IMG/VR virus record: IMGVR_UViG_3300017435_000029
DNA: 64,000 nucleotides
Reading direction: 5' to 3' (one strand)
DNA from: a virus
The translations under genes and the position numbers were made by a program. The notes under the pieces were generated by a model, which saw nothing but the letters and a program-made list of their open reading frames with translations, searched no databases and was not told the origin of the DNA. Of the stretch, positions 27,206 through 59,200 are shown one piece after another; positions within the stretch are counted from its first letter, which is position 1; each line of letters opens with the position of its first letter.

Positions 27206-27208
27206 CAC

Positions 27209-27790: not shown

Positions 27791-27791
27791 C

Positions 27792-28037: not shown

Positions 28038-28040
28038 GAC

Positions 28041-28505: not shown

Positions 28506-28508
28506 CAC

Positions 28509-29909: not shown

Positions 29910-29922
29910 AGGAACGAGTGAA

Positions 29923-30195
29923 ATGAGCGACATCGACATGAACGACGACGTGTTCGACCCGAAGCCCGCCGCAGAGGCGCCGGACCGTCCCCAGGTGCTG
30001 ATCGACGACGACCAGAAGTTCGACGTCCAGCCCGAGAACTCGGCGAACCCCGACGCCGCGCCCTTCCGCGACCGCGTGCCGGCCAACTGGATCGTGCACG
30101 AGATGGAGGACGGCCGCGTCGCGGCGCGCAACCCGCTCACCCAGGAGCGCTTCGAGGGCACCCGTGAGGCCCTGAACGAGAAGCTCGCCGGCTAA
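29923..30195 (+). CDS. acidic hypothetical protein (90 aa)
   Basis: ORF with a protein-like translation. Confidence 0.5.
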   Translation: MSDIDMNDDVFDPKPAAEAPDRPQVLIDDDQKFDVQPENSANPDAAPFRDRVPANWIVHEMEDGRVAARNPLTQERFEGTREALNEKLAG

Positions 30196-40270: not shown

Positions 40271-40843
40271 ATGGCTCACTTCACCGGCATCGGCGCCGGC
40301 ATCTACACCGACCTCGCGGTCGCGACGCCCGCCGCCGAGCTGACCGTATTCCCGACCACGCAGGCCGGCTTCGCCGCTCTGTTCGCGACGGAGATCCAGA
40401 ACCAGGGCGGTACCCGCGCAGCCGGCGCGTTCGTCCGCATCAAGAACGTCCGCGAGTTCCCGCCCATCGGCACCCCGGCGAACATCGTCAACGTGCCCGT
40501 CTACGGCGCGCCGACGAGCTCGCAGGTCCAGGGCCAGTCGGACGCACCGACGCTGGAGCTGACGCTCAACTACGTCTCCAACGACTGGGGCAAGGACGCG
40601 ACCACGATCACGTCCTACATGGTCGGCGACGGCATCCAGCGCGTCTTCCGCTTCTCGCTGCTCAACGCGCAGCCGGCGGACTACGGCCACGCGGCGGCGA
40701 AGATGGGCGCGGTGCCCAACTCGTCGTACTTCTTCATCGGCCGCATGGAGGCGCTGCAGGTCAACCCGCAGCTCACCGACGCCAACACCGCCACGCTGAC
40801 CCTGTCGATGCAGGGCCAGTTCTACGGCGCGTACACCGTCTAA
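40271..40843 (+). CDS. putative major tail (tube) protein
   Basis: 190-aa protein immediately upstream of the chaperone genes and the tape measure gene. Confidence 0.55.
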   Translation: MAHFTGIGAGIYTDLAVATPAAELTVFPTTQAGFAALFATEIQNQGGTRAAGAFVRIKNVREFPPIGTPANIVNVPVYGAPTSSQVQGQSDAPTLELTLNYVSNDWGKDATTITSYMVGDGIQRVFRFSLLNAQPADYGHAAAKMGAVPNSSYFFIGRMEALQVNPQLTDANTATLTLSMQGQFYGAYTV

Positions 40844-41221: not shown

Positions 41222-41557
41222 ATGGACGACACGACCAACAAGAGCGCGCCGACCGGCATCATGGCGCTGCTCGGCCGGAAGATGCACAAGACCGTCAAGT
41301 TCCTGGGCGCCGACGTCAAGATCTACAAGCTGACGGTCGCCGAGGTCAAGGAGATCCAGGACAAGGCCAAGAGCCTGGAGTCGGACGAGGAGGCGGGCCT
41401 CGACATCCTGCGCACGGTGATCCGTCGCGCGGTCGAGGGGGGCGCGGAGCTCCAGGACGCCGACTTCGAGGCGTGGCCCATGGACGAGCTGTCGAAGCTG
41501 TCGAACGAGATCATGAAGTTCTCGGGCATCGCCGGTGACCAGGGAAAGTCCGACTAA
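41222..41557 (+). CDS. tail assembly chaperone (G-like)
   Basis: Lies between the major tail and tape measure genes; RBS GAGGACGAC; ends just after the slippery heptamer. Confidence 0.6.
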   Translation: MDDTTNKSAPTGIMALLGRKMHKTVKFLGADVKIYKLTVAEVKEIQDKAKSLESDEEAGLDILRTVIRRAVEGGAELQDADFEAWPMDELSKLSNEIMKFSGIAGDQGKSD

Positions 41558-41883
41558 CAGACGAACAGCTGGCCCTGTACGAGGTCGCCCACAACCTAGG
41601 CAAGTTCGTCTGGGAGGTGGCCGACCTGCCGTACACGGAGCTGCTCGGCTGGTACGACTACTTCGAGCGCCGCCCGCACGGCTGGAGGGAGGACGACAGG
41701 GCCTCCAAGATAATCCAGTCCGCGGGCGTGAAGGAGAAGCCGTGGGTGCTGTTCCCGTCGCTGGAGCGCATCTACAAGCCCGAGAGCGCGGTCGAGGGCG
41801 ACGAGGCCGGGAAGAGCCTCGGAGGCTCCGCGTTCTTCCAGAAGATGATGCAGGCCGTAGGAGGGGACAAGATCGCGCTATGA
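41222..41883 (+). CDS. tail assembly chaperone G-T fusion, produced by a -1 programmed frameshift at GGGAAAG (41542-41548)
   Basis: Canonical X XXY YYZ heptamer G GGA AAG in the zero frame, 9 nt before the G stop. The -1 frame is open from 41539 to 41883 and is protein-like (LTDEQLALYEVAHNLGKFVWEV...). Confidence 0.55.
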
Positions 41884-42176
41884 TCAAGGTCAAGATAAAG
41901 GGCGACCTGTCCCGCGAGATAGCCGCCAAGGTGGCTGCCTCGACCACGACGGTCGTGAAGAGTGCCGTCGAGGCGCTCAGGGACGCTACCCCGGTCGACA
42001 CCGGGGAGGCGAGGGACGGGTGGCGCCTGGAGAAGGACGCCATCGTGAACGACGTGGAGCACGTCTCGTTCCTCAATGATGGAAGCTCGCAGCAGGCCCC
42101 GGCCTACTTCATCGAGCAAACTCTGTTGTCACAGAAGGGCGTAGTCCCTAGTGGAACAATCGTTAGGCCGCAATGA
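41880..42176 (+). CDS. tail-component protein (98 aa, HK97-gp10-like DTGEARDGWRLE)
   Basis: ATGA overlap with the upstream gene; weak DTG motif. Confidence 0.45.
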   Translation: MIKVKIKGDLSREIAAKVAASTTTVVKSAVEALRDATPVDTGEARDGWRLEKDAIVNDVEHVSFLNDGSSQQAPAYFIEQTLLSQKGVVPSGTIVRPQ

Positions 42177-42236
42177 CCTACACCCCTGCTAGGCTGTTAT
42201 GTCTGGCGGGGGTTTAATTTTAGAGAAGGAGGTACT

Positions 42237-45200
42237 ATGTCGGGCGTTATTATCGACGTAGAAACGAACTCTGAGAAGGCCAAGAGCGACCTGCGTTCAC
42301 TGAACCGGTCGCTGGCAGACATGGTACTGTCCGGCAACAAGGCCGGTCGCTCGCTGTCCACCGTGGACAACGGGCAGTTCAAGCAGCTCGACAAGAGCGT
42401 GCAGCGGTCCACCGAGAGCATGAAGAGCTTCGGTCGCTCCGGCTCCTCCTCGCTGAGGGCCGTCGCCAGCGACACCGCCGCGCTCCGGGCCAACATCGAC
42501 ATCCTCAAGGGCTCCGTGCTCGCGGTCGCGGGCGTCTTCGCGGCCACGCAGGGCGCTAGGCTCTTCACCCGCGCGGGCGACGACCTGCTCGAGATGCAGA
42601 ACCGCCTCAAGCTGGTGACCGAGGGCACCCGCGAGCTGGCCACGCGCCAGCGGCAGCTGTTCTCGACCGCGCGCGACACCCGGACCTCGTTCGCGGCCAA
42701 CGTCCAGATCTTCACGACCTTCTCGAAGGCGCTGGAGAAGGCGAACGTGTCGGGCGACCGGGTCGTCAAGATCAACAAGACCATCCAGCAGGCGGGCACC
42801 CTCTCGGGCGCCTCCGTGGAGGGCCTCAACGCCGCGCTCATCCAGCTCGGCCAGGGCATCGGCTCCGGCGTCCTCCGCGGCGAGGAGTTCAACTCCGTCA
42901 TGGAGCAGATGATGTACCTCGGCAACGGGCTCGCGAAGAGCCTCGGGGTGAGCATCTCCCAGCTGCGCAAGATGGCCAACGACGGTGAGCTGACCACCGA
43001 GAAGCTGGTCGGGGCGCTGGAGAAGATGGCGTCCACCACGGAGCGCGACTTCCAGAAGACCGCCGTGTCGACGTCGAAGGGCATCGCCTCGCTCCGCCAG
43101 TCGCTGGCCTACTTCTTCGGAGACCTGAACCAGACCGTCGGCGTCAGCCAGACGATGGGCTCGGCCTTCCAGAAGATGAGCGAGCGGGTGAGCTTCGGGG
43201 CGGACGGCATGGTGATCCGCCTGACGACGGTCCGCCGAGCTTTCAAGAACTACTTCGACCAGCTGCGCACCGTCGCCGGCTCGGGGTTCGACCTCAAGAA
43301 GGCGTTCTACCTCAGCGACGACGACCGCGTGAACGAGACCCAGCGCGCCCTCAAGGAGCGCAGCGCCTCGATGGTCAAGCGCATCCAGGAGCTCATGCGG
43401 GGCCAGCGCGACGCCGACTCGCAGGCGGGCAACCTCGTCAGCAAGCTCTTCGGACGAATCAAGCGTCCGTCGAAGGAGGACGGGGGCTTCTTCGACATGG
43501 GCGACACCCGCCGTACCGTCCGGGCCATCGTCGACACCTCCGCCCAGATCGCCAAGGCGGTCGAGACCACGGGCTGGATGATCAAGCGCATCGTCCCCAC
43601 GGTCCGCACCCCGATGATCCGCTTCCGCGAGGAGATCCTCAGCAGCTTCGCCGTCACCAACAAGGAGATGGAGACCTCCGTCTACAAGAAGATGCTGCCC
43701 CTCATCCGCAAGGTCGAGGTGGCGCGCGACGCCTTGACGGTGGGTATCAACGACGACGCGGCGCCCCGCGCCTTCGTGGAGCTGTTCAAGTCGGCTGACA
43801 TCGAGCAGTTCGCGGAGCGCCTGTCGCGCCTGAACGACCTGATGGACAACCACTTCATCCGCTGGAACAGCATGGGCTACTTCCTCGGGGAGAAGCGCCG
43901 CGCCCTGGTCTACAGCTGGCTGTTCCCGACGCAGGACCTCCTGGTCAAGCTCGGTCTGATGCAGAACCGGCTGTTCATGATCCGCGACACCAAGCTGGAT
44001 CGCACGGTCGCGTACTTCAAGCTCATCGGCGACATGATCGCCCGCGCGTACAACGACCTCGTAGCGCCTGACCTGAACCTCTTCGCCTACAAGGTGAAGA
44101 TCGGCATCCTCGTGGTCGCCAAGACCGCGCTGGACATGCTCAAGGATACCTTCAACTTCGCGAACGGCAAGGCCCTCGGGGCCGGTCTCGTGAAGGGCGT
44201 GGGGGCGGCGCTCGGTGCCGTCGTCTCGGTGGCTAAGCGGCTGGTCAGCTTCGACTTCGGCTCAGACGCCGAGAGCAAGAAGCTCGCCGCCCGCCTCCGC
44301 GACTCACTCATGGGCGCGATGGCGAGCATCCCCGGCTTCTTCGGGGGCCTGGTGACCGGCATCGGCCGTCAGCTCGCCGACGCGTTCGAGAGCATCGACT
44401 TCTCGGCGCTGCTGGACGGTCTGCGGGGCACCCTGACCGCGGCCGTGGGCTGGGTCAAGAAGATGTTCGATGACATCCTCGGGTACACCGACAAGCCGCT
44501 GGCCTCGGTGGAGCGGCGCGTTCGCGCGTTCGGGGACCGCGTCAAGGGTGTCTTCTACGACGCGTGGGACGCGGTCGTGGGCCACAGCTACTGGCCCGAC
44601 CTCGTGGACGACGTCAACGACTACACTAAGCACCTGTTCAAGTCGAACAAGCTGGTGGACCAGTTCAAGGAGATCATTCTCCGCAGCTTCCGCAGCCTGT
44701 ACGAGTCCGTCTCGAAGATGGGCGGCAAGGCGGCGGACACTCTGAGTCAGGTCAGCCTCACCATCCGCAAGGTGGACTGGGGCCAGAGCGCCAAGAACAT
44801 CGCCGGCCAGCTTGGCACCGTGCTGTACGCCGCCTTCACGATCCTCCGCTCGAGCTCCGGCCCGCTGCGACTGATCTCGGCGGCCTACCTCCTGTCTATC
44901 ATGGACACCGCGACGGGCGGCCTGCTCCGCAACCTCGCGCCGACCATCGGCGACGTGGGCGGTGCCATGGGCGCCCAGCTGGCGGTCATGATGGGCAAGG
45001 GCCTGTTCGAGGGCTTCGTGCTCATCGGCCACGCGCTGCCTAAGTTCCTGGAGTCGATGTTCGTCAACCTGGGGCAGGCCACCTTCGGGTTCGACCTGTT
45101 CGGCAACATCTTCCGCGCGCTGGACAACTTCGTCCCGGTGTTCAGCAACAACATGATCGGGGCCATCGCCGCCATCACCGTGGCGTGGCTGAAGTTCACC

Positions 45201-48200
45201 GGGCAGCTCAAGGTCGACAAGCTCAAGGGCTTGATGGAGATCTTCACCGGGACCAAGAAGAAGGACGGCTCCGTCAAGGAGCACGGCGTCGGCGCGGCCT
45301 TCTTCGAGGGCTACGCGGGTCCGCTGGTCGGCAACGCCGCCAAGTTCCTGCCGTCCGGCCAGATCGCCAAGAAGCTCATCGACCAGCCCGCGTTCGCGCT
45401 GGCGGCGGCGGGCATCCTCAGCGCGGGCCTGACCGACGCCTTCAAGATGACCGACGCCTTCTCGGCGGCCGTCCCGTTCATGGCCATCGCGGTCATGGGC
45501 AAGGGCGGCGGCGCGCGGCTCCTCAAGGACATCGCGTCTGGCCTGTTCAAGGTCGTCAGGGGCGCGTCGGCCATCGTGGCGAGGGAGGTGGCGACCACCG
45601 TCCTGCCCCGCGAGACCGGTGCCGCGTTTCTGCGCTTCATGGACAACTTCGACCTGTCAAAGTACAGGCCGAGGGTCGCCCCAGGCGCCCAGGCCGGCAT
45701 GTTCTCCGACGTCAGCCGCAACTTCAAGCAGATGCTGGTTAACCTCGAGATGAACCGGAAGCGGTACGCCGAGGGTGCCATCGACCTCAGCGAGACGCTG
45801 TTCAAGAGCTCGCCCGTCGGGCCCAACGGACCCGTCCAGCCCGTCGACACGAGCTTCAAGCGCAGCTTCGACGACCTGCTGAACCAGATGGGCTACACCG
45901 AGGGCGCGGTGGCGCGTACTCGGGACCGCATCCGCACCGGGATGGACAACTTCTACCTCGGGCTGCAGGCGGCGGCGACCAACGCCAACGTCGGCCTCCG
46001 TGCCGCGTTCTCGCGGCTGTCCGAGATGATGCTGTCGATACTCCGCAACAAGGCCCTGCTGGTCGCCCTCGCGGCGGCCATCGCTGTGGGCATGGCCGGC
46101 ACCGCCAACGCGGCCACCGGCACCGCCGACGCCTTCTCCCAGCTGGGCGACCGCCTGGCTCCCGTGGCCATCGCGGCTGCGGCCCTCTACGCCACGTTCA
46201 AGGGCATCAAGCTCCTGGCCGGGGCCAGCCGCATCGACATGAAGGTCAAGAGGGACTACTACTCGGAGAACGTTGGCCCCGAGGTCGACCGCTACCGAGA
46301 CGTCCTGCGCGGCAAGGCTAGGGACCGCATCGACGAGTACGACTCCATGTCGCGCTCGGAGCGCAAGGCTAACGGCTACACCACGCGGTCGGCGCTCAGC
46401 GACTCGCTGGACGAGGACATCGCCCGCAAGGCGGCGGCCCGCGAGAAGGAGCTCAAGGGCTACTACAAGAAGGACGCCGACGCGGCGGGTGGCTCCGCCA
46501 TGAAGGCGTACCTGCTGGCCCCGTTTCAGTCCCTCAAGGACGCCCTGACCCAGAAGCCCTCGGTGGACACCGGGGCGCTCAAGGAGAACGCGTCCTACCT
46601 CAAGGGGTTCGCCAGCGCCCTCCGCGCGGCCACCATCGCGACGCTGTTCAACACCAAGGCTCAGGCGGCCCAGGCCGCGCAGGGCACCCGCAGGGCCACC
46701 CAGGGCGCGTTCAGGGACCTCGTCCCGGCCAACCGTCGCCTCGCCGACAACAGCTTCAAGCCCGCCGGGCTGCTGACCTACCGTCTGGACGACGCCGAGA
46801 AGAAGGGGGCCTCCGCGGCCGCCTCCATGCTCAGCGGAGCCGGGCTGGCCGGCGGCCTCAAGAAGATGGGCGGCGCTCTCGCCAAGGGTGCGGGCGGCAT
46901 CGTAGGGTTCGTCCCCAAGCTGCTCGGCTTCCTCGGCCCGTGGGGCAAGCTCGCGGCCGTGGCCCTCACGCTGGGCGGTGTCCTCTACGGGGCGATCGGC
47001 CCTATGGAGGGCTTCATGGACAACCTGAAGCTCGCAGCCGCTAACCTAGCCGCGCTGTTCGGCATCGAGATCAAGACGAAGGCCAAGGAGCTGAACTCGC
47101 TCGTCACCGACTTCGGCAAGTCCGAGGTGGACGGCGACAAGTTCGACATCACCGAGCAGCTGCGCAACATCGACGGCAACAAGCTGTCCGACGCGCAGAT
47201 CGAGGGCCTCCGCAACGCGCTGGCCGCGTCCAACGACACCTTCAAGATGCTGAACGACGCCTCCGTGGCGCAGGGCGGCAAGCTGACGGCGGCGCAGGAG
47301 GCGGAGAAGCAGCGCACCCGCTCCGAGGTGGAGGGGCTCCTGGTCCGCTACCCGCAGAGGGAGACGGCCTCTTCCAAGGACTTCGGCCAGCAGATGGCCA
47401 TCATGCAGCGTCGCCGGGTGCAGGGGGACAACTCGTTCTCCGGCAACTTCAGCAGGCTGCTGGGCGGCGACACCTCCAACGTGGTCGCCAGCGGCAACGG
47501 CGCCTTCTCGCTGTTCTACGACGTACGCGACAACCTGTCCGACTTCTCCACCGGCCTGCAGGGCGCGGTGGCGGCCCTCGGCGCTTGGGTCACGGGAGTG
47601 GCCACCTTCGACGTCGCCAAGTGGCTGGTCCAGAAGGGTCGGGAGAATTCCGAGACGTTCACGGCGGTCGACGACTTCCTGAACGGCATCGGCCCCGCGA
47701 TCCGCGAGCGCATCCGGGACAAGGACAACGCTCCCGCCCAGATGTACAACGAGTTCGAGAAGGGCTTCATGGGTGACACCACGAAGTACTTCAAGGACCT
47801 GCAGCGGGCCCAGCCGGACGTCGCCAACAAGGTGATCTCGGCCCGTGACCAGTACGACAAGGCGGCTCGTCAGGCCGAGTCCACCCGCAAGGTGGTGCAG
47901 GCGGGCGGCTACGACAGGTCCATGGGCGACCGCGACCCCGAGGACGCGCAGAGGCGCTACCAGAGGGAGCTGGCGTTCCTGGCCCGGATCGAGCAGTCCT
48001 ACCGCCGCATCGGCATCGCGGCCGGCAAGATCGGCAAGTTCGAGAACCAGAAGGAGGCCCTCCGGGTCGGCCTGAAGAACTTCGCGAACCGCACCAAGGA
48101 CCTGGGCGTCGACTTCGGTAAGGAGGGCGAGAAGTTCTTCGGGACCGACCGCAACATGGCCTCCTTCGACGCCTACGCGCAGCAGCGCGACCGCGGACAG

Positions 48201-51200
48201 AAGGCGCTCTCTCGGGTGACCGACAACGCGGGCAGGCTCCGCGCCTCCAACATGGTCTACTCCGCCGAGCAGGGCGCTGCCGGGCTCAAGGAGCAGATGG
48301 ACGCTCGTCGTCTGTTCTCCGGTGCCGTCAAGCAGGGCAGCGAGGCCAACGGCGTGTCCAGCGCCACGCTGGCCGCACTGGCGGTCTCCGGCTCTGCGGC
48401 GGGCAAGGCGCTCAAGCAGGCCAGCGAGAGCTACCTAGAGCTCAAGACCCGCCTAGACACCGCGCCCTCGGACGCTACCCCCGCGCAGCTCCGCAAGCTG
48501 CAGGAGGACGCCGACAGGGCCGAGGCCAAGATGCGGTCGCTCGCGACCAGCTTCACCGGCTTCGAGGGGCTGAACCAGGCCCTCAGTGGCCAGGGTCTGC
48601 AGGGCCTCGACCTCAACCAGTACGTTAAGCTCCCCGACCAGAAGATCCTGGGCCTGAACAAGCTGCTCATGGAGGACATCCCCAGGGCGTCCGACGCGGC
48701 GGCCAGGGCTTTGGCGAAGGTTGGCAAGGACGGCAGCGGCCTGGACGAGTACAAGGCCGCCCTCCAGGGCGTGCTGCGCCTCCAGCGTCAGGCCGAGACC
48801 GTACGGGCTACCGGCATCAGGGACGCAGTCGCGGCCGTGAGCATCGGTGGACCCGCTGGGACCGCCGTCGCAGCTGACGTGGCCGGCGTGCAGCTCAACT
48901 CGAGGCAGCTCCGTAACAAGGGTACGCAGGGCGCGGTGGGCAAGCTCACCACCGCCAACGCCTCCGTGGCAGGCTTCCGGGAGCTCATGGCTACCCGGCC
49001 GCTGAGCGCGGACGAGGCTACCAAGTACGGCAACGCCGTGAGAGACGCGGCGGACGCCCAGGAGGCGCTCGACAAGCTCGGCGAGAAGCCCGAGAAGGTC
49101 AAGAAGGACAAGTACGGCTTCAAGGAGCTCCTCGCCGACGTGAACGAGGCGGGCGTCGCCATAGACGCCCTCGGGTTCTCGCGGCTGGAGGCCACCTCCC
49201 GCAAGTCGCTGTCCAGCATCGCCTCCCAGATCCACGGGATCGAGAAGCAGCTGGAGAAGGCGACCCCGACGCAGGATGTGTCGGGCCTGCTGGTCCGCAA
49301 GGCCAAGCTGCTGGCCGACATGCGCCAGAAGCTGGTCGACGCCTTCGACAAGACGGGCAAGGCCATCGGCGAGTCGCTGTCCCGCTCGGGCCTCAGCGAC
49401 AAGGCGCAGCTCGCGCAGCTCAGCGCGGGCCAGGTGAAGCAGATCGTCGAGTACGACAAGCTGATCACCCTGCGCCAGGCCGACCTGGACGACGCCACGG
49501 GGCCGGAGGAGTACGCGCAGGCTCTCCGCAAGGTCCTCAACCTCGAGCAGGAGCGCGCCGCCTACCTCGACCGAGCGACCTCGTCGCCCGACAAGTGGGC
49601 GGAGCGGATCAACGCGATCTTCTCCAGCAGCCTGGACACCACCTCCGCCGACCTCATCGGCTCGGGGCTGGCCGAGTACCTCTCCTCCGCGGCCGACGCC
49701 GTAAAGGCCAAGCTCGAGGAGATGCGCTCTAAGGGGCTGGTCTCGTTCGAGTGGATGCGCGACATCAAGCGCCAGGGCGAGTACATCTCGCTGTTCAGCG
49801 ACGTCGCGACCTCGATGGAGGACTCGATGGTGCGGGGCTCCCGTGCCGCCTTCAAGAAGATCAAGGACCTCGTCCCCGACTACGGCGTCAGCGAGCGCAA
49901 GTTCCGCCGGTTCAGCCCGGACCAGCGGCGCGAGGCGCTCTCCAACGCCGTGAACCTGGACGCGCTCGACAGGGCGCAGTCCCTGCCGAACCTGACGAAG
50001 CCCCTCGCGGACATCCTGAACTCCTTCGACGGCTCTAACCAGGCCGACGTGATGGAGCGCTTCCGCGAGGAGTGGGTTAAGGAGTTCAAGACCAAGTTCG
50101 AGGCGACGCCGCTGGAGTCCTCGATGGACCGGCTGACGACCGCCGTGGACGGCCTGAACACCACCCTCACCGGCAAGAGCGTCATGCCCGCGACCCTGTC
50201 GGCCACCCCGGCCGGCGTCGCTGCCACCCCCGACGACTTCGGCAAGCTGGTCGACATCACCCTGAACACCGAGAGCGGCGGTCGTCGCTACGGCAAGGGC
50301 GGGAAGCTCCTGCGGTCCTCCAAGGGCGCGCAGGGCGAGATGCAGGTCATGCCGGGCACCGCGAGGGACCCCGGCTTCGGGGTGAGGGCTGCTCGGGACG
50401 GCTCGGCGGACGAGCTGGCTCGGGTGGGCAAGGACTACCTGTCCGCCCTCCTCAAGATCTACGGCTCCGTTGACAAGATGTGGGCTGCCTACAACGCTGG
50501 CCCCGGCAACCTGAACAAGGCGATGCGCAGGGGCGGCGAGGACTGGCTCAAGCGGCTCCCCAAGGAGACGCAGGACTACGTGGCCAAGAACATGGCGGCC
50601 TACAAGCCGTCGGTCGCGAGGTCTCCGGAGGCTGAGGGTCAGGACATCGTCGTCACGGCGAACCCTCTCGTGGACTACGGCAGGGGTGAGGTGAACGCCG
50701 ACACGGCCGACAAGATCGACCGTGCTCGCAAGCGCTTCACCGGGGCGAACGGCGGCGGGCTGAAGGACAAGCTGGCTACGGCCGGCATGGACCTGAAGAC
50801 CCTCGACCTCTTCGACCCGAAGCAGCTGGCGAAGCTGGGCGCGTACCAGGAGCGGATCGACGACCTCAACGAGGCCATCGCGGCCGCGGACGCTACCGGG
50901 CAGGACACCTCCGTCCTCGCGCGAGAGCTCCAGAACGTGCAGGGCAACATGGACCGGTTCACCGACCGGGTCGTGCACATGGGCGACTCTCTCCGGCAGG
51001 CCGGGGAGCAGCTGGCCCAGTCCCTGGACCGCAACCTCAACGACGCGCTGTTCAACGCCTTCACCGGTAAGGGCGGCTTCTTCAAGTCGATCTTCAACGG
51101 TCTGTCCCAGGACATCCTCCGTCAGGCCACGGGCGCCATCACCGCCCCGATCACGGGCGAGAACGGCGTCGTGACGCAGGGCATCCGTAGCATCTTCGGA

Positions 51201-52037
51201 GGCAACAAGGACGGCAAGCTCGACCTCGGCGGTGTGGGAGGCTTCTTCGGCGGCCTGTTCGGCAAGAAGAAGAAGAAGGAAGGCCCGCTGGGCTCGTTCA
51301 TGTCGGGCTGGGACTTCAACCCCATCTCCGACAGCCCGGAGAGCGGCGGCATCGGGGGCAACCTCCTGTCCGCCGGCACCAGCGGTATCGGCAAGATCTT
51401 CGGCAAGGGGGCAGGCCTCCTGGACACCGGGATCACCGACGCGGGCACCGGCATCGCCGACCTGTTCGGCAGCACCGGGGGCGACGTCGCCGGCCTGCTG
51501 GGCGACAGCCTGACCAGCGCCGGGACAGACGTTGCCAAGAGCATCGGCGGCTCCCTCAGCGGCATGTCCGCTGGAGGGGTGGTCGGCGCTGCGGCCGGTC
51601 TCGGCTCCCTGTTCGGCACCCTCATCGGGGGCTTCTTCGCAGAGGGCGGGGCCGTCTCGACCAACGGCAAGATCAGCGGCCCCGGCACCGGGACCAGCGA
51701 CAGCATCCTGGCCATGGTCTCCGACGACGAGCACATCATCAAGGCACGGCAGGCACGCAAGTACCGGCCGCTCCTGAACGCCATCAACAACGACACCCTC
51801 CCGAAGTTCGCCACCGGCGGCGTGGTGGGCGCGTCTGAGTCCAGCATGCTAGCCCTGCCCACCGTGGGCACGATCGACGAGTCGAAGCTGCCCTCCCGCC
51901 AGGAGAGCGGCAAGACCGAGATCAACCTTGGCATCACCGGGGACATCAACCGGCAGACCAAGGCGACCATCTACGAGATGCTCCCGCAGATCGCTGCGGG
52001 GGTCAGGCAGCACAATAAGGAACAGGGATACAGGTAA
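42237..52037 (+). CDS. tape measure protein, 3266 aa, with an internal lytic transglycosylase (SLT-like) domain
   Basis: Giant helical ORF downstream of the chaperones. SLT motifs AQGEMQVMPGTA and AAYNAGPGNL lie at about 50330-50520; a Gly-rich C-terminal region follows. Confidence 0.85.
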   Translation: MSGVIIDVETNSEKAKSDLRSLNRSLADMVLSGNKAGRSLSTVDNGQFKQLDKSVQRSTESMKSFGRSGSSSLRAVASDTAALRANIDILKGSVLAVAGVFAATQGARLFTRAGDDLLEMQNRLKLVTEGTRELATRQRQLFSTARDTRTSFAANVQIFTTFSKALEKANVSGDRVVKINKTIQQAGTLSGASVEGLNAALIQLGQGIGSGVLRGEEFNSVMEQMMYLGNGLAKSLGVSISQLRKMANDGELTTEKLVGALEKMASTTERDFQKTAVSTSKGIASLRQSLAYFFGDLNQTVGVSQTMGSAFQKMSERVSFGADGMVIRLTTVRRAFKNYFDQLRTVAGSGFDLKKAFYLSDDDRVNETQRALKERSASMVKRIQELMRGQRDADSQAGNLVSKLFGRIKRPSKEDGGFFDMGDTRRTVRAIVDTSAQIAKAVETTGWMIKRIVPTVRTPMIRFREEILSSFAVTNKEMETSVYKKMLPLIRKVEVARDALTVGINDDAAPRAFVELFKSADIEQFAERLSRLNDLMDNHFIRWNSMGYFLGEKRRALVYSWLFPTQDLLVKLGLMQNRLFMIRDTKLDRTVAYFKLIGDMIARAYNDLVAPDLNLFAYKVKIGILVVAKTALDMLKDTFNFANGKALGAGLVKGVGAALGAVVSVAKRLVSFDFGSDAESKKLAARLRDSLMGAMASIPGFFGGLVTGIGRQLADAFESIDFSALLDGLRGTLTAAVGWVKKMFDDILGYTDKPLASVERRVRAFGDRVKGVFYDAWDAVVGHSYWPDLVDDVNDYTKHLFKSNKLVDQFKEIILRSFRSLYESVSKMGGKAADTLSQVSLTIRKVDWGQSAKNIAGQLGTVLYAAFTILRSSSGPLRLISAAYLLSIMDTATGGLLRNLAPTIGDVGGAMGAQLAVMMGKGLFEGFVLIGHALPKFLESMFVNLGQATFGFDLFGNIFRALDNFVPVFSNNMIGAIAAITVAWLKFTGQLKVDKLKGLMEIFTGTKKKDGSVKEHGVGAAFFEGYAGPLVGNAAKFLPSGQIAKKLIDQPAFALAAAGILSAGLTDAFKMTDAFSAAVPFMAIAVMGKGGGARLLKDIASGLFKVVRGASAIVAREVATTVLPRETGAAFLRFMDNFDLSKYRPRVAPGAQAGMFSDVSRNFKQMLVNLEMNRKRYAEGAIDLSETLFKSSPVGPNGPVQPVDTSFKRSFDDLLNQMGYTEGAVARTRDRIRTGMDNFYLGLQAAATNANVGLRAAFSRLSEMMLSILRNKALLVALAAAIAVGMAGTANAATGTADAFSQLGDRLAPVAIAAAALYATFKGIKLLAGASRIDMKVKRDYYSENVGPEVDRYRDVLRGKARDRIDEYDSMSRSERKANGYTTRSALSDSLDEDIARKAAAREKELKGYYKKDADAAGGSAMKAYLLAPFQSLKDALTQKPSVDTGALKENASYLKGFASALRAATIATLFNTKAQAAQAAQGTRRATQGAFRDLVPANRRLADNSFKPAGLLTYRLDDAEKKGASAAASMLSGAGLAGGLKKMGGALAKGAGGIVGFVPKLLGFLGPWGKLAAVALTLGGVLYGAIGPMEGFMDNLKLAAANLAALFGIEIKTKAKELNSLVTDFGKSEVDGDKFDITEQLRNIDGNKLSDAQIEGLRNALAASNDTFKMLNDASVAQGGKLTAAQEAEKQRTRSEVEGLLVRYPQRETASSKDFGQQMAIMQRRRVQGDNSFSGNFSRLLGGDTSNVVASGNGAFSLFYDVRDNLSDFSTGLQGAVAALGAWVTGVATFDVAKWLVQKGRENSETFTAVDDFLNGIGPAIRERIRDKDNAPAQMYNEFEKGFMGDTTKYFKDLQRAQPDVANKVISARDQYDKAARQAESTRKVVQAGGYDRSMGDRDPEDAQRRYQRELAFLARIEQSYRRIGIAAGKIGKFENQKEALRVGLKNFANRTKDLGVDFGKEGEKFFGTDRNMASFDAYAQQRDRGQKALSRVTDNAGRLRASNMVYSAEQGAAGLKEQMDARRLFSGAVKQGSEANGVSSATLAALAVSGSAAGKALKQASESYLELKTRLDTAPSDATPAQLRKLQEDADRAEAKMRSLATSFTGFEGLNQALSGQGLQGLDLNQYVKLPDQKILGLNKLLMEDIPRASDAAARALAKVGKDGSGLDEYKAALQGVLRLQRQAETVRATGIRDAVAAVSIGGPAGTAVAADVAGVQLNSRQLRNKGTQGAVGKLTTANASVAGFRELMATRPLSADEATKYGNAVRDAADAQEALDKLGEKPEKVKKDKYGFKELLADVNEAGVAIDALGFSRLEATSRKSLSSIASQIHGIEKQLEKATPTQDVSGLLVRKAKLLADMRQKLVDAFDKTGKAIGESLSRSGLSDKAQLAQLSAGQVKQIVEYDKLITLRQADLDDATGPEEYAQALRKVLNLEQERAAYLDRATSSPDKWAERINAIFSSSLDTTSADLIGSGLAEYLSSAADAVKAKLEEMRSKGLVSFEWMRDIKRQGEYISLFSDVATSMEDSMVRGSRAAFKKIKDLVPDYGVSERKFRRFSPDQRREALSNAVNLDALDRAQSLPNLTKPLADILNSFDGSNQADVMERFREEWVKEFKTKFEATPLESSMDRLTTAVDGLNTTLTGKSVMPATLSATPAGVAATPDDFGKLVDITLNTESGGRRYGKGGKLLRSSKGAQGEMQVMPGTARDPGFGVRAARDGSADELARVGKDYLSALLKIYGSVDKMWAAYNAGPGNLNKAMRRGGEDWLKRLPKETQDYVAKNMAAYKPSVARSPEAEGQDIVVTANPLVDYGRGEVNADTADKIDRARKRFTGANGGGLKDKLATAGMDLKTLDLFDPKQLAKLGAYQERIDDLNEAIAAADATGQDTSVLARELQNVQGNMDRFTDRVVHMGDSLRQAGEQLAQSLDRNLNDALFNAFTGKGGFFKSIFNGLSQDILRQATGAITAPITGENGVVTQGIRSIFGGNKDGKLDLGGVGGFFGGLFGKKKKKEGPLGSFMSGWDFNPISDSPESGGIGGNLLSAGTSGIGKIFGKGAGLLDTGITDAGTGIADLFGSTGGDVAGLLGDSLTSAGTDVAKSIGGSLSGMSAGGVVGAAAGLGSLFGTLIGGFFAEGGAVSTNGKISGPGTGTSDSILAMVSDDEHIIKARQARKYRPLLNAINNDTLPKFATGGVVGASESSMLALPTVGTIDESKLPSRQESGKTEINLGITGDINRQTKATIYEMLPQIAAGVRQHNKEQGYR

Positions 52038-52630
52038 TGCCCTACGGTATCGTCGACAACGGGGTCGTCATCGCGCAGTTCGTGGTGCCCATGACGCTAC
52101 GCTCCAACCGGCCCGTGTTCGTCTCCGATACCCTGTCTCTCCGGAGGCAGGTCGGGCGGCGGGCGGCTCAACGCTGGGAACTAGAGACCCGGCTCGAGCC
52201 GCTCGGCGCTGGCGCGCAGGACCTGATGGTCAACCTGGTGACCAGCGGCCACTCGGAGCCGGTTACGATCTACGTCCCCCAGAACGGGGGCGTCATAAAG
52301 AGGCGAACGTCGAACTCGGCGTTCACGGCGACGGGGGCGGCGGGGGCTACGGCCCTCACCGTCTCCGGTAACGGCGGGCTCGTGCCCAAGGGTACGTTCA
52401 TCCGCTTCGCCAACCATTCGAAGGTATATATGCTGACCGCCGACCTGAACGGCAACGGGACGATGAGGATCTTCCCGGAGCTGCGCGTGGCGGTCAACGC
52501 GACATCGCTGACCCACCGAGACAACGTCGTCATGAATTGCCTCTACGACACCGACACAGTGATCGGTATGTCGTACGAGGACGGCGTCCTCATGGACGCG
52601 GGTACGGTCAAGCTAATTGAGAGGATTTGA
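52037..52630 (+). CDS. tail protein (distal tail-like, 197 aa)
   Basis: TAATG overlap with the tape measure gene; assigned by position. Confidence 0.5.
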   Translation: MPYGIVDNGVVIAQFVVPMTLRSNRPVFVSDTLSLRRQVGRRAAQRWELETRLEPLGAGAQDLMVNLVTSGHSEPVTIYVPQNGGVIKRRTSNSAFTATGAAGATALTVSGNGGLVPKGTFIRFANHSKVYMLTADLNGNGTMRIFPELRVAVNATSLTHRDNVVMNCLYDTDTVIGMSYEDGVLMDAGTVKLIERI

Positions 52631-52633
52631 GAT

Positions 52634-53221
52634 ATGTTGCTGTTCAGCCCGAGGGTTCGACAGCTCATCGCCGACGGGCGGGCGAGGGCGTTCTTCTGCC
52701 TTCACCTGCTCAACGCCGATTTGAGCGTCTACCGGGCCTCGACGACCCACTACAACACCGTGAAGCTCGGCAACGACATCACGTACGCCGCGGACGACTT
52801 CATCGTCTCCGTGGACCCACCCAAGATCAGCTCCAACGTCGACCGGGAGCAGTACCGCGTGACGCTGGCCGACCCCGAGTTCCAGGGGGCCGCGGACGCG
52901 GAGAACGGCCTCGTCGGCAAGAGGATGGAGGTTCGCCTCTGCTTCCTGGACCCCGACACCAACCTGCCCCTGACCGACATCGAGGACACGTTCATCGTGT
53001 ACAAGGGGCGGGTCGACGGCATGACGTCCAACGTCAGCACGGAGGAGGTCGGCGAGTCGCTGTTCGACATGACCGGGGCGAGCCCCATGGTCTCGTTGGA
53101 CATGAGCAAGGGCACCTACCTGTCCCGCGACGTCATGCGCGCGAGGGACCCGGAGGACTCGAGCTGCGATAAGATCTATAACGGCTCGGGCGCGCTCGTG
53201 CTAAAGTGGGGGAGGTCCTAA
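52634..53221 (+). CDS. tail protein (195 aa)
   Basis: Assigned by position, between the tape measure and the fibre. Confidence 0.5.
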   Translation: MLLFSPRVRQLIADGRARAFFCLHLLNADLSVYRASTTHYNTVKLGNDITYAADDFIVSVDPPKISSNVDREQYRVTLADPEFQGAADAENGLVGKRMEVRLCFLDPDTNLPLTDIEDTFIVYKGRVDGMTSNVSTEEVGESLFDMTGASPMVSLDMSKGTYLSRDVMRARDPEDSSCDKIYNGSGALVLKWGRS

Positions 53222-56200
53222 TGGGTCTCGAAGTAATCATCATCGCGGCAGCGGCGTTCGTCATCTCGGCGGCGTCCGCAGCCTACCAGGTCGTGCAGGC
53301 CAAGAAGATGAAGGCGCAGGCGCAGGCCGCGGCGGACGCCCGCAAGGGCTTCGAGCTGGTGGTCGAGGGCGAGCCCGAGTACCTGCCCATCGTCTACGGT
53401 CGCGCCATGATCGGCGGCACCCGCACGTACCACAACACGCGCAACGACTTCGCTTTCGATGCGCCGAACTCGGACAAGAGCTTCCTGACGGGCTCCCCGG
53501 CCTACGCCGGGTACAACTACACCTACTCCATCTGGGACGCGAACCTGTACGCTCAGCTGGGGATGCTCGGCACCGTATCGCAGCAGGGGTCCGGCTACAT
53601 GTCCGGCCCGCTGTCCGGCGGCAAGAACGACTTCCTCGCGTACCAGCAGGCCCTCTGCGTGGGGCCGATCAACGCCGTCAGGGACGTGATCATCGACGGC
53701 GCGCGGTTCATCGACGACCCCACCCTGGGGACGTACGGCGAGATCCAGGCCACCACGGGCAAGAAGAAGACGTCCGGGGTCAAGGCCGCGCTGCGCCTGG
53801 ACTACCACTACAACGGCGGGGCGGACTCCGTCATGGCCGCCAACTTCCCCGAGCGCAAGGACTCCAAGTTCACTCGGGCGGCCTACCTGTCGGCCTTCTT
53901 CCGCATCGACCGGGACGACCCCCAGTTCCAGGGCGTCCCCGGCGTGCAGAGCTACATCGAGGGCCGCAAGGTCCGCTGGGTGGCGAACGGCGTCCTGTCG
54001 ACCACCAAGTCGTACGAGGAGGACCCGACCAAGTACCGCTACACGACGAGCCCGTCGCTCTGCCTGCTCGACTACCTGCTCGACAGGGAGAACGGGAAGG
54101 GCTGTGACGTCGGCGACTTGGACCTGTTCAGCTTCGAGGCGGCCGACGCGCTCTGCCGCAAGGTGGTGCAGTCGGGCGTGGCCGTCGGGGGCAAGTTCTG
54201 GAAGCCGACCGACGGGATCGGCGCGACGGACACCCGCGACCTGCCGCTCTACGAGTGCAACATCGTCGTGGACACCAGCAAGCCCGTCCGCGAGAACGTG
54301 GAGGCCATCCTCTCCACGATGGGCGACGCGCGGCTGGTCTGGTCGGGCGGCAAGTACCGTCTGAGCATGCAGTACCCGGAGACGAACGACAAGATCGTTC
54401 TGGCCGGCGTGATCACCGACGACGACCTCGTGATGGGCGAGGACGTCAGCATCGCGTGGCCGACCGCCAGCGACCGCTACAACCACTGCAAGATCCGCTT
54501 CCACAACGAGTACGAGGGGTTCAAGGAGGACAGCGTCTCCTGGCCGCCCAAGTACAACAACAGCTACGCCCGAGGCATCGGTGCCCAGAGCTACCCGCAG
54601 GGCGTGGGCGGCTGGGACGAGCTCAAGGAGGGCGGCCGCCTGCTGAGCGCCTACGGCGTCTGGAACGGGGCCGGCGACAGCACCAGCATGACCTGGAAGC
54701 TGCGCGTGAACCCGGACCAAGCCGGCACCTACGCCCTCGCGGCCACCGGCGACAACACCATCAGCGTCAGCATCAAGGACGACCAGAGCGGGGCCAGCGT
54801 GCTGTCCCTCAGCAACAACAACTGGAAGGTCCCCGCTAAGCGGTCGGTGACGCTCGGCTCCTCGGCGGGCGTCCGGGTCTACACCATCACCGTCAGCGGC
54901 ACGAACGACGGCAACGCGGCCAAGGCGGTGGCGGTCAAGATCGACAACGCCAACGTGGTGCTCTGGACGACCCGCAGCACGTCCTACGACAGCTACGCCC
55001 AGGTCACCGAGAGCGACGCGGTCTACAAGGAGATGCTGGCCGAGGACAACGGGCTGGAGCTCGAGGCCGACATCTTCTCGGACGGCATCACCGACACCCA
55101 GCACGCGCTGGCAAAGGCGGAGGAGCTCGTCCGGTCGAGCCGCACGGCGGCCGGGTACAAGTTCAAGTACGTGGTCACCGACCGCTTCTACGAGCCCGGC
55201 GACTTCGTTCAGCTGAAGAGCCTGACCCTGAACGTCGGCTACGCACAGCCCCTGTACCTCCGTGTCGAGGGCGTCAAGGTGGTCGGCGACGACCGCTGCG
55301 AGGTCGAGGCGTCTCGCTTCGACTACACCCAGCTCGCCTGGAACGTCAAGGACGACGTCAACATCAGCGCCCCGCCGGTGTACAACATCGTCCTGCCGCA
55401 GCCCTACGAGATCAGGTACCTGGCCCCGAACAAGGACAACACGGACAGCTCGGGACGGCTGGAGTGCGACCCCGTCGCGTTCCCGGAGTTCTCGGCCTAC
55501 GTGTGGTTCATGCACAGGGCCGGGGTGGACGGCACGGACGGGGACGGCAAGCCGATCCTCACCGAGATCGCCCGCACCACCACGCCCAGCTACGACCTGC
55601 CGAGCGTCAACGCGGCGAGCGCGTTCTTCGGCGTCAAGGCGCTGTCGTCCAACGGTCGCATGTCTCGGATCACGACGACGGACCCCCGCGCCGCGATCAC
55701 GCTGACCCACAACTGGCTCCGCGCCGTCACCATCGACGCGCCCGTGACCACCTTCCTGAAGCAGGACGGCGGCGGCTTCGCCCCGGTCACCCTCTCCCTC
55801 GTGGCGAGGGCCCAGGGCTTCGTCAGCCCCACGTTCGAGTGGTACCTCGGCTCGACCCGCGTGGGCACGGGCGGGACGCTCGTGGTGGCCGGCTTCAACG
55901 AGAGCTCGCGCGTCTACTCCCTGCTGGCCAAGGAGGCGTCCGACCCGACCGGCGTGACCGCCGACGCGGACGTGACCATCCTGTCCTACTCAGCGGCCGA
56001 GGCGGGCTCCACCCGCGGCTCTCCCAACGACACCTACGTCGCCGGCCAGAAGGCCCAGGACCTCGTCAAGAGCGCCAAGGACAGCAAGGACGCCATCGGG
56101 GACGCCAACAGCGGCCTCACCAAGGCCCTGAACGACACCGCCACTGCCATCAGCAGCGCCGACTCGGCCATCAACAGGTCGATCACCGCCGCAAAGAAGG

Positions 56201-59200
56201 TGGCCGACGACGCGGCCCTGGCGATCAGCAGCTCGACCTCCACCCTGAACGTCAGCATAGCGAACGCCAAGAAGGCGGGCGACGACGCCAGCGCGAAGGT
56301 CGACACCACGGCGAGCGCGCTGCAGGTCAACATCAACGCCGCTAAGAAGGCGGGCGACGACGCGGCGGCCGGGGTGACGGCGGAGGTCAACAACCGGCTG
56401 GCCGATACGCAGTCCATACGCACGACCCTTATCGGGAGCATCCAGAGCGGCAAGACCGTCTCTAGCCTGCTGACCGACGAGGCCGTCACTCGAGCGGCCG
56501 ACGACAGCGCCATGAGCGCCCGCATCACGGTCAACGAGACCAACTACGGCTGGACCGGCTTCACGCCCAACCCGAAGTTCGGCCAGTACGCGACGACCAG
56601 CGGTCGCCCCGCCTACTGGAACAACGAGGGCGACCCCGGAGCCGCCCGCCTGACGCGCGTCCTGGGGGAGGGCGGCGTGGGCTACGCGCTGCGCGCCAGC
56701 ACGACGGCGGGCGTGGGGACCTACATGAGCGCGGCTAGCCCGATGGGTGTCGTGCGCCAGAGCCAGTGGATCGTCCTCGAGATGGACGTGAAGCTGATCT
56801 CCGGCACGCTGCAGGGGCTGGGGATCTTCGCCCGCACCCGGACCAGCGGCGGCGCCAACTCCAACGAGTACTCCCTGAAGTGCGGATCCGACCCGGACAC
56901 CAGCGGCGGCGCTCCTGGGGACGGGGCGGCGGGCAAGACCTACCGATTCCGCAAGCTGATGCAGATCACCAACGCCGACGCGGACCAGCTGGTCACCTTC
57001 CTGGGCCTCAAGATGGGCCAGACCAGCAGCCCGAGCAACAACACCGGCGTGGACAGCGTCTACGAGCTGTACCTGGTCAACGTGCGCCCCGCCACGGACC
57101 CCGAGATCAAGGCGCAGAAGGCCGACGACACCCTCAACACGCCCCAGTCCGGCGTGGTGGCTCGGCTCCAGACGGTCCAGACGACCCTGGGCGACAGCAC
57201 CTCGGGTCTCGTCAAGTCGTTCAACGACCTCAACGTCCAGATCAACCCGACCGGCGGTCCCAGCGTTACGGCGCGCCTGAGCACCGCCGAGCTCGCCATC
57301 GGCGACAGCACCAAGGGGCTAGTGAAGAAGACCAACGACCTCAGCACGAGCGTCACTAAGTCCGGCCAGCAGATCATGCCGGAGAACATGCTCAACCCCG
57401 GCAACTGGACGAGCCAGGAGCTCGTTCTCCAGCCGACGGTGTTCGACCTGACGGAGTCGCGCTTCTACCTCAACGGCGAGGGCGTGATGACCTTCACCAC
57501 CAACGCGGGCGAGAGCATCAAGCTGGCACCGACCTGGTTCTTCAAGCCGCAGAAGGACCGTACCTACCGCGTCACGTGGAAGGTCCGTCGCTGGAACGCG
57601 GCGACGAGCGGGACGTCCCTCGTGGATTTCGGCTTCGTCTGGAAGGGCACCAACGGCGGTGACAACTACGCCACCAAGTCGGTAGACGCCTCCACGCTCA
57701 AGGGCAGCGCGACGGACTACGACGAGCTGTCCTACGAGATGAAGGGCATCGACGGTATGGGCTGGGCTCGGCCCCGCGTCCACCTGAACAACGGCGGCGG
57801 CGCGGGGGCGCGCTTCATGGTGGCCGGGTGCAGCGTCCAAGACGTGACGGAGATCCTGGACACTCGCGCCAGCGTCAAGGACATCTCGACGGCCATCAGC
57901 ACCCCCGGCACCGGCTACGCGGCGAAGATCAGCGCGCTGGAGACCTCGGTAGGCAACAACACCACGGGCAAGAGCCTGACCGCGCGGCTGGAGGCTACGG
58001 AGAGCGCTCTCAACGACGGCACCACCGGCGTAGTGGCGCGCACGAGCAAGCTCGAGGTGCGGCCTATCCCGGCGGGCAACATGCTGCCCAACACCAGCTG
58101 GCCGAACAAGAAGACCACCGGTTGGAACGTTCCGACGGGGCTCAACATCGGGGTGAACAACCCTACCGACGAGTGGCATCCCAAGGACGAGAACGTCTTC
58201 TCCCTGTACTCGCAGGGGGACGCCGGCGTCACCGGCTACGCGGCGGCGCAGATCAGCGAGCGGTTGCCCGTGGACGACACCCGCTGGTACCAGTTCTACT
58301 CCTTCAACGCCGCGCACCGCTGCAGGGCCGAGATGCGGATGATCTGGTTCGACGCCTCGGGTGCGCAGATCACCAGCCAGACCAACTGGACGGGCGGGGC
58401 CACCGTGGCCACCGGCGGCGTGGATCCGAAGAACTACACTCAGATGGGCTTCAAGTCGGTCAAGCCGCCTGCAGGCGCGGTGCAGGTCGAGGTGGGGCTC
58501 GGCAAGTGGGGGACGGTCTCGGGCGAGACTAACAGCTGGATGTTCATCTGGCGCCCCTACTTCGGTGAGACCTACGAGGGCAACACCGCCTGGAACCCCT
58601 ACGTGCCCGGCAACGGCACCACGGTCTTGGACGACACGTCCTCACGCCTCGCTACGGCCGAGACGGTCATCGGCACGGCCAGCTCGGGGCTCGTCAAGAA
58701 GACCGAGGACCTGAACGTCCAGATCAACAAGGCGGGCGACGGCATCAACGCAAAGTTGACCGACACCCGGCTGGTGGTGGGCGACGCCAACAGCGGCCTA
58801 GTCCAGAAGGTCACCTCGCTGGACAGCCAGCTCAACACCCAGGGCACCGGCGTGGCGGCCAAGCTCACGGACCTGACCACCACGGTCACAGATCCGACTA
58901 ACGGTCTCACCAGCCGGATGAGCAGGGCTGAGACGCGTTACGGGCAGCTGCCCGTTCGCTTTCTGGTCAGGTCGGCGGGCTACGCCGGAACGGATGCTCC
59001 CTGGGGCAACACGAGCACGGGCCTGTACGCTGCTGACGGGACGGCTCTGTTTGCCGTGGGTCGCAGCTACGGTGCGGTCGTGTTCGGCAGCGGCAGCAAC
59101 GCCATCTCGTTTTCGAAGGTGTACGACGTCTACGGGAGCACCGCTGCGGCCACCGAGCTGGCCAACATGCTGAACGGCGTGACGAAGGGCCAGACGATCG

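Follow-up and report, generated by a model that had tools for sequence, protein, structure and literature searches.

Giant tape measure proteins (TMPs), muralytic motifs embedded in TMPs and transglycosylases carried in virions are each already known. The TMP of phage P23-45 comprises 5,002 residues and its tails exceed 800 nm (~0.16 nm per residue), so the ruler rule holds for giants. Muralytic motifs occur within the TMPs of mycobacteriophage TM4 and of enterococcal phages—the latter carrying transglycosylases—and in TMP gp41 of structure 9b45, while T7 gp16 is a virion transglycosylase. Deletion of an embedded 114-residue muralytic motif in TM4 cut tails from 200 to 180 nm, a shortening of ~20 nm where the ruler predicts 17 nm, so inserted enzyme modules contribute to the length that the ruler sets. 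The TM4 motif is dispensable, and it improves infection of stationary-phase cells. Here we describe an open reading frame (ORF) at 42237..52037 (+ strand) of IMG/VR record IMGVR_UViG_3300017435_000029, analysed as a stretch of 64,000 nt with an overall GC content of ~66% (hereafter the window). It very likely encodes the tail length TMP of an uncultivated siphovirus-type phage, a ruler predicted to set a tail of ~455–475 nm, and it carries a lytic transglycosylase cassette.

That a long TMP should also carry a lytic transglycosylase is no surprise, and by itself this pairing leaves current understanding unchanged. The additions made here are modest: a member of a large uncultivated family of TMPs of ~3.1–3.3 thousand residues, with its own signature motifs and a swappable cassette slot, and the link of this TMP family to the Naomviridae and to the lineage of EBPR siphovirus 1, for which a reference annotation is corrected.

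Integrity and identity of the tape measure gene

The gene is a single continuous ORF of 3,266 codons with an ATG start, exactly as placed by the first-pass annotation (coordinates and length). Third-position GC (GC3) is 0.89–0.99 across all 100-codon blocks in this frame; a Shine–Dalgarno sequence read off the DNA, AAGGAGG (42226..42232, + strand), stands before the ATG at 42237 with a 4-nt spacer; the stop codon and the start codon of the following gene are merged in the sequence TAATG; the N-terminus, MSGVIIDV..., is kept in homologs; and the identical 3,266-residue protein occurs on two contigs of 72,639 bp and 67,641 bp (JGI, ENA). For these reasons the ORF is a real gene and not a chance product of high-GC DNA. 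Self-BLASTP found no internal repeats in the protein, and a length attained by internal duplication is accordingly rejected. None of 50,697 phage records matched the gene by megablast, so there is no near-identical isolate among those records. Cysteine is absent from the protein, and its median count over 80 giant relatives is likewise zero.

Residues 110–299 (42564..43133, + strand) form a TMP_3/tape_meas_nterm domain, matching PF20155 at E = 6e-45 (153.8 bits; cut-off 41) and TIGR02675 at 6.6e-20 (71.2 bits; cut-off 21.35), and at least 13 PHROG TMP families match residues 1 to ~330 at 1e-28 to 1e-60. When a TMP family profile was compared with all PDB sequences, it retrieved TMPs alone besides weak helical-bundle and apolipoprotein-like matches: gp18 of 9occ at the N-terminus (1.4e-41), and gp16 of 8zdo (3.7e-28) and 8rk3 (1.1e-22) at the C-terminus. 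Over residues 1300–2650 the profile met nothing but weak matches of helical type. The gene follows the tube gene and a G/GT frameshift pair and precedes the distal tail protein (Dit) and tip genes. The tape measure identity first proposed from the letters alone is thus borne out by the PF20155 match and by the position between the G/GT pair and the Dit gene: the protein is a bona fide tape measure, most of which would fit an extended helical ruler.

Because the P23-45 TMP hides an RNA polymerase (RNAP) at the corresponding position, residues 331–1300 (43227..46136, + strand), a conserved region without annotation, were modelled with AlphaFold2 (AF2). The model is all-alpha (76% helix, two strand residues or 0.2%, helices of up to 79 residues), and at its low confidence (mean predicted local distance difference test score, pLDDT, of 51) it holds no confident compact domain. 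No DxDxD or HExxH motif occurs anywhere in the 3,266-residue protein, no beta-barrels are predicted in the N-proximal third such as a TMP-fused RNAP of the P23-45 type would have, and searches of Pfam, NCBIfam and the PDB yielded no extra enzyme or RNAP domain; with neither motif present and an all-alpha model, a hidden P23-45-like enzyme is rejected as far as testable. Approximately 2,300 residues are without a domain assignment in Pfam or NCBIfam, and the Chou–Fasman propensity profile is too flat to inform. Four strongly hydrophobic 19-residue windows (residues 647–665, 1266–1291, 1572–1590 and 3112–3133) punctuate the chain. Two are transmembrane-like: residues 1266–1291 (46032..46109, + strand; Kyte–Doolittle 19-residue mean 1.87), kept in the family as a hydrophobic stretch followed by A-x-AA, and residues 1572–1590 (46950..47006, + strand; mean 1.68), followed by a conserved LFGPG..F..NL.WA. 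The window at 3112–3133 is the Kyte–Doolittle peak of a Gly-rich region with a hydrophobic GxxxG-like stretch (residues 3000–3140; 51234..51656, + strand; 24–30% Gly/Pro+Gly).

An optional cassette within a family of giants

Residues 2666–2800 (50232..50636, + strand) constitute an SLT-family lytic transglycosylase cassette. The domain had been called from two motifs, and the call is confirmed by PF01464, which scores 33.7 bits on the whole protein (3e-8) and 39.1 bits on the isolated segment (6e-10), with a cut-off of 21.3. The segment matches Slt70-family enzymes in the PDB, and a four-sequence cassette profile finds P. aeruginosa Slt and E. coli Slt70 at ~1e-17. The catalytic Glu-Ser pair, E2679-S2680 (50271..50276, + strand), aligns with E478-S479 of Slt70 (1qsa) and is invariant in all four cassettes; E2679 also aligns with E503 of P. 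aeruginosa Slt, which is Glu in the wild type and Gln in the deposited inactive E503Q mutant. Sequence and alignment place motif II, the GLMQ-type EMQVMPGTA, at residues 2701–2709 (50337..50363, + strand) and motif III, AYNAGPG, at residues 2751–2757 (50487..50507, + strand), in agreement with the earlier location of both at about 50330–50520; the residue range then offered for the domain, 2690–2790, is too narrow, missing the catalytic pair upstream. Read one residue further out, the motifs are GEMQVMPGTA (2700–2709), with Glu replacing the usual Leu, and AAYNAGPG (2750–2757). GxMQxMPxT, AYNAGPG and ETxxYV are all conserved in the cassette.

An AF2 model of the cassette (pLDDT 71; predicted TM score 0.69) has the all-alpha fold of goose-type lysozyme. 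Its top ~38 Foldseek matches in the PDB are nearly all lytic transglycosylases, including MltD, Slt, LtgA, Slt70, Cj0843 and MltF, together with a Ralstonia chitinase (lysozyme-like fold) and, ranked lower, T7 gp16; the best is MltD 8rhf (E = 2.5e-4, TM 0.59). Judged by its conserved residues, the module looks catalytically competent.

A whole-protein search returned collinear homologs of 2,931–3,292 residues at 25–46% identity and a few of 3,956 and 4,614 residues. Since a whole-protein search favours long proteins, it was repeated with residues 1–330 alone against 1.84 billion representatives: 44 of the 50 best clusters were at least 2,800 residues long and five were short, probably fragments, with ordinary tape measures of 600–1,500 residues appearing only below ~E = 1e-37. 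Giants of at least 2,700 residues fill at least 80 database clusters. Two motifs mark them. GHSYWPD, at residues 782–788 here (44580..44600, + strand) and invariant in a 14-member alignment, is found in 68 of 80 fetched giants and in 2 of 77 TMPs of ordinary length; GPGTGTSDSI, which opens a conserved C-terminal module (GPGTGTSDSI ... ITGDI.RQT ... N.E.GY; 51666..52034, + strand) with many invariant columns, is found in 67 of 80 and 2 of 77, respectively. The window's protein has GHSYWPD ~800 residues from its N-terminus, a C-terminal GPGTGTSDSI...ITGDISRQT module and a length above 2,700 residues. On these sequence signatures the giants form a coherent TMP family, of which the window's gene is one member. 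In some members the longer motif F(Y/F)D(I/A)WDxVVGHSYWPD is duplicated or triplicated. Comparison of TMP length with relatives, suggested by the first-pass annotation, gives 3145 ± 141 residues for the closest 41 giants (coefficient of variation 4.5%); its description of the protein as exceptionally long holds in the sense of unusual, not of unique, since the P23-45 TMP is longer and the family itself contains those 80 or more clusters. One relative, P0003, has a TMP of 3,291 residues with 40% identity over 100% of the query, and that protein is identical in four assemblies (contigs of 79,024–79,040 bp).

Within the 14-member alignment, the SLT cassette occupies its slot in this gene (P0001) and in P0002; the same slot holds an unrelated module of ~100 residues in P0003 and P0005 and nothing in the other ten members, and in more distant giants SLT modules sit at other positions. 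By alignment, then, SLT is an optional cassette in the giant family, and from its absence in most members it is not required for this tail type, a distribution that the dispensability of the TM4 motif would fit. The alternate module (P0003 residues 2703–2810; P0005 residues 2483–2587) conserves RTQAR, YADG, H-R-S-x-H-V-P-G-T, VDV and a distal His; it found no match in a Pfam or PDB profile search and may be another cell-wall enzyme. Its likeness to an LAS/M15-type peptidase is a resemblance only, with the Pfam and PDB profile searches empty, and we make no claim for it.

Total TMP length is ~3,220–3,290 residues in 9 of the 14 members despite segment differences of at least 100 residues. A permutation test over eight alignment-anchored segments detected no compensatory length conservation across all 14 members (variance ratio 1.06, P = 0.60). 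A ratio of 0.17 (P = 0.0016) emerged only upon post hoc removal of the three shortest members; as this exclusion is circular, the result is not evidence and is suggestive at most. It is possible, if doubtful, that this uncultivated lineage, which spans dozens of clusters at 50% identity and N-terminal domains as little as ~30% identical, holds its TMP at ~3,150–3,300 residues (a tail of ~0.45–0.5 µm) by stabilising selection, with indels offset elsewhere. The presence or absence of a 130-residue SLT or alternate cassette at near-constant total length would be an example. If true, the family would be a natural experiment on the adaptive value of a very long tail, for instance in traversing thick sheaths, flocs or capsules of hosts, and embedded enzyme cassettes would be 'budgeted' within the ruler.

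Predicted tail length and alternative readings

The nearest calibration comes from the relatives DSS3_VP1 and DSS3_PM1, which have siphovirus morphology and tails measured at ~230–240 nm. With the 1,655-residue TMP of DSS3_VP1 this corresponds to 0.139–0.145 nm per residue, which, carried over to 3,266 residues, predicts a tail of 454–474 nm; ratios of 0.13–0.16 nm per residue give an outer range of 425–520 nm. The rule of ~0.15 nm per residue on which the first-pass annotation relied is backed both by this ratio and by the ~20-nm effect of the TM4 deletion, and its forecast of a tail of ~450–500 nm is supported as a prediction, for which the DSS3_VP1 calibration gives ~455–475 nm. A tail of ~0.45–0.5 µm would be unusual, not unprecedented. 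Half-micrometre tails would thereby be predicted for an abundant group of uncultivated environmental phages, ~2–4 times as long as those of typical siphoviruses and, of the cases described so far, exceeded only by the Thermus P23-45 group.

By analogy with lambda, TP901-1 and TM4, the G/GT chaperones would coat the largely alpha-helical TMP during assembly, and the tube protein would polymerise around it and stop at its N-terminal end, so that a tail of ~455–475 nm would be set by all 3,266 residues, cassette included. By analogy with T5 pb2, T7 gp16 and TM4, the TMP would be expelled tip end (C-terminus) first upon infection, its hydrophobic segments may contribute to a trans-envelope or membrane channel, and the SLT cassette may cleave peptidoglycan glycan strands locally, letting the conduit through. 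Lying ~470–600 residues from the C-terminus, the cassette would reach the periplasm early.

Several points weigh against reading the gene as a ruler of this length with a working cell-wall enzyme. Tail length is an extrapolation for this phage; the tube and terminator assignments are weak PHROG matches only; most family members lack the SLT cassette; the AF2 models cover residues 331–1300, at low confidence (pLDDT 51), and the cassette; and, as P23-45 demonstrates, a giant TMP may conceal a globular enzyme that escapes sequence searches. Lambda gpH is proteolytically processed, as this TMP might be. In one alternative the ruler is only partial: a large fraction of the protein could be folded, cleaved or stored elsewhere, be it the SLT cassette, the Gly-rich part near the C-terminus, the hydrophobic third near the N-terminus or a globular cargo that has escaped notice, leaving a tail markedly below 450 nm. 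The cryptic N-terminal polymerase of the P23-45 TMP, missed by sequence searches, is a precedent, the predicted fold of the SLT cassette is itself compact and lysozyme-like, and the ~2,300 unassigned residues and the low-confidence model of residues 331–1300 also speak for it. Yet P23-45, polymerase included, still measures ~0.16 nm per residue, the TM4 tail shortened upon motif deletion as a ruler predicts, and DSS3_VP1 gives 0.14 nm per residue within the same TMP family. The modelled third is all-alpha and without strands, the family profile met no non-TMP domain in the PDB except the weak helical-bundle and apolipoprotein-like matches, and DxDxD and HExxH motifs are lacking. We therefore consider a partial ruler rather unlikely, and a full-length ruler the better reading. 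The giant ORF could also be an artefact, either genes fused by sequencing error or a chimeric join of the TMPs of two phages. Spurious long ORFs do arise in high-GC DNA, where long chance frames are possible, as the antisense ORF of 1,093 codons inside this gene illustrates, and in EBPR siphovirus 1, the only GenBank phage relative over its full extent, the annotation has two genes here, gp63 (1,211 residues, 'tail protein') and gp64 (2,141 residues, 'tape measure'). That split is traced to a direct duplication of 74 bp (~70 bp with two mismatches) at L001 (JF412302) 15556–15704, a period that is not a multiple of three; as a result the peptide MSRNFGLAIISGMMLVFGDARL is encoded twice and the reading frame is displaced, and one uninterrupted ORF of 3,327 residues returns once the duplication is collapsed. 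The duplication is most simply an unmerged overlap in metagenomic assembly. With GC3 uniform in one frame, zero internal repeats, the identical protein in two assemblies and dozens of collinear full-length homologs of 2,850–3,400 residues, an artefact is very improbable and already largely refuted; the earlier concern that a corrected assembly might reveal two genes is answered by an ORF that is intact in independent assemblies.

The cassette, in turn, might be catalytically dead, a structural remnant serving, for example, as a peptidoglycan-binding module or spacer, with no peptidoglycan cleavage at entry. Its motif II reads GEMQ in place of the usual GLMQ, six more residues separate the catalytic Glu-Ser from motif II than in the cassettes of P0024 and P0035, and most family members function without any cassette. 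These features are set against the conserved Glu-Ser, GxMQxxPxT, AYNAGPG and ETxxYV, with E2679 falling on Slt70 E478 and Slt E503; against an identity of 54% between the P0001 and P0002 cassettes that exceeds the 43–46% of the whole TMPs and suggests purifying selection on the cassette; and against the example of TM4, whose embedded muralytic motifs are active and useful. On balance a dead cassette is unlikely, and a competent enzyme within the ruler is preferred.

Genome context and comparison with known systems

The phage is an uncultivated, apparently virulent siphovirus-type phage with a genome of at least 72.6 kb and ~66% GC, and all credible genes of the window lie on the + strand. The left half of the window encodes a DNA ligase, an RNA ligase, a DNA-binding protein and the large terminase; an ATP-dependent DNA ligase and an RNA ligase are both present, at 135–1151 and 17545–18528 (+ strand), respectively. 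A typical siphovirus morphogenesis block follows in the order portal (30195–31832, + strand), MuF protein, scaffold, major capsid protein, head–tail adaptor, terminator-like and tube-like genes, and then small genes, the TMP gene, Dit, a 195-residue tail protein and a second giant ORF. The putative tail tube protein (190 residues; 40271..40843, + strand) follows the terminator-like gene and matches the major tail protein family phrog_158 weakly (2e-5). The tail assembly chaperone G (111 residues; 41222..41557, + strand), upstream of the TMP gene and with GC3 of ~1.0 in frame, ends just past a slippery heptamer, G GGA AAG (41542..41548, + strand), in X XXY YYZ register with gene G, whose stop lies 7 nt on; a –1 frameshift there would yield GT. 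We take this to be the same heptamer as in lambda G/GT, and a G/GT chaperone pair of this kind is the usual companion of tape measure genes. The T extension (41542..41883, + strand) runs in the –1 frame, which is open to 41881 with GC3 of 0.97 over 41580–41850 and has no convincing start of its own. A small tail-completion-like gene (98 residues; 41880..42176, + strand) matches phrog_5 (tail completion/Neck1, 5e-9) and, weakly, HK97-gp10-like proteins. No sheath gene was recognised among the scanned ORFs of the tail module.

Downstream, the Dit gene (52037..52630, + strand), whose start overlaps the TMP stop, matches the distal tail protein family phrog_1302 at 1e-16. Two genes past the TMP gene, in the position of a central tail fibre or host-specificity protein, lies the second giant gene (3,129 residues; 53206–62595, + strand); the sole matches of its product are an ILEI domain (residues 1964–2044) and a PHROG 'tail protein', and its syntenic counterpart in the relative L003 has 1,383 residues and a faint Phage-tail_3 match. 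The two giant genes together span ~19 kb, about a quarter of the 72.6-kb contig. No giant close relative of the TMP occurred in prophages among 185,579 species genomes searched, and there is hence no sign of lysogeny; the matches in those genomes were to ordinary TMP N-terminal domains only, mostly in Pseudomonadota prophages. A Gram-negative host among the Pseudomonadota would be a weak guess.

The MuF-domain protein (1,552 residues; 32297–36955, + strand) combines an N-terminal MuF domain (PF04233) with a C-terminal single-subunit RNAP of the T7/N4 type. Phmmer found no match in the PDB for the RNAP-like part, which was assigned by motif inspection: DMRGRVY (residue ~858), DASSSGAQ (~1002), FYGAG and VHDAF (~1449). 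The fusion is kept in relatives, as a 1,549-residue protein beside P0003, as the 1,463-residue 'minor head protein-like' product of DSS3_VP1 and in EBPR siphovirus 1. Judged from these motifs, it is a candidate virion RNAP, packaged in the head and injected, of a siphovirus with a long tail; Iyer et al. (2017) describe N4-like virion RNAPs as confined to N4-like phages. The fusion may perhaps be a greater novelty than the TMP. In EBPR siphovirus 1 its homolog is in two pieces, gp47 and gp49 (L001 (JF412302) 793–6166; record positions 25771–31144), with the HNH endonuclease gene gp48 between them, which suggests a mobile intron- or intein-type insertion.

By sequence comparison, the phage appears distantly related to EBPR siphovirus 1 and to the Naomviridae roseophages. 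EBPR siphovirus 1 (JF412302) is the closest GenBank phage, with capsid and MuF-RNAP proteins 50% and 54% identical to those of the window; its gp63–gp64 region is collinear with the window TMP at only ~25% identity, with no BLAST alignment over query residues 2666–2800 and thus no match to the SLT cassette. The comparison with the Naomviridae, in which deoxyuridine replaces deoxythymidine in the DNA and whose DSS3 roseophages are marine, covers the capsid, MuF-RNAP, TMP anchor regions and gene order. DSS3_VP1 and DSS3_PM1 proteins are 37% (capsid) and 29% (MuF-RNAP, over 92% of the query) identical to those of the window, and both phages share the order portal, MuF-RNAP, scaffold, capsid, tail. 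The DSS3_VP1 TMP is half as long and has no SLT cassette by BLAST; it is homologous at the N-terminal domain, at the G(H/N)SWW(P/T)D region, where it reads GNSWWTD, and at the C-terminus, where the last 47 residues are 45% identical. Natural length variants in the family thus comprise ~1,650 (cultured DSS3_VP1), ~2,950, ~3,250 and up to ~4,700 residues, and with the cassette variants (SLT, other module or none) they could test the ruler mechanism, what becomes of enzyme domains inside the tube and what selective advantage tail length confers.

Among characterised systems, the closest in scale is P23-45 gp96 and the P74-26 TMP, which, like the window protein, are giant single-polypeptide TMPs of very-long-tailed siphoviruses. 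The P23-45 TMP is ~1.5 times longer; it has membrane segments, an internal metallopeptidase domain that acts on the cell wall, where the window TMP has SLT instead, and an N-terminal two-barrel RNAP with DFDGD, whereas the window phage has its RNAP module on the MuF head protein. The searches run revealed no similarity in sequence linking the two TMPs. TM4 gp17 offers the closest parallel to the cassette: a muralytic module inside the ruler, towards its C-terminal part, that counts toward tail length, aids DNA injection and is non-essential, matching the optional-cassette pattern seen here. TM4 differs in its actinobacterial host, its tail of ~200 nm and its enzymes, motif 3 belonging to a hydrolase family different from SLT and motif 1 being Rpf-like.

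The enzymatic counterparts are Slt70, P. aeruginosa Slt and Neisseria LtgA (family 1, GH23), with which the cassette has in common the catalytic Glu-Ser, GxMQ, AYNAGxG, ETxxYV and the predicted fold; it comprises the catalytic domain only (~135 residues), without the superhelical U and L domains of Slt70, and has Glu before MQ where Slt70-type enzymes have Leu. T7 gp16 and the solved TMP 9b45 gp41 are examples of such transglycosylases borne in virions. Lambda, the ruler paradigm with a tail of 150 nm, has the gene order found here—tube, G, GT (by –1 frameshift at GGGAAAG), TMP, tip proteins—with the difference that the window has an extra 98-residue gene between GT and TMP. Its gpH, of 853 residues, is without an enzymatic cassette, unlike the 3,266-residue protein described here.

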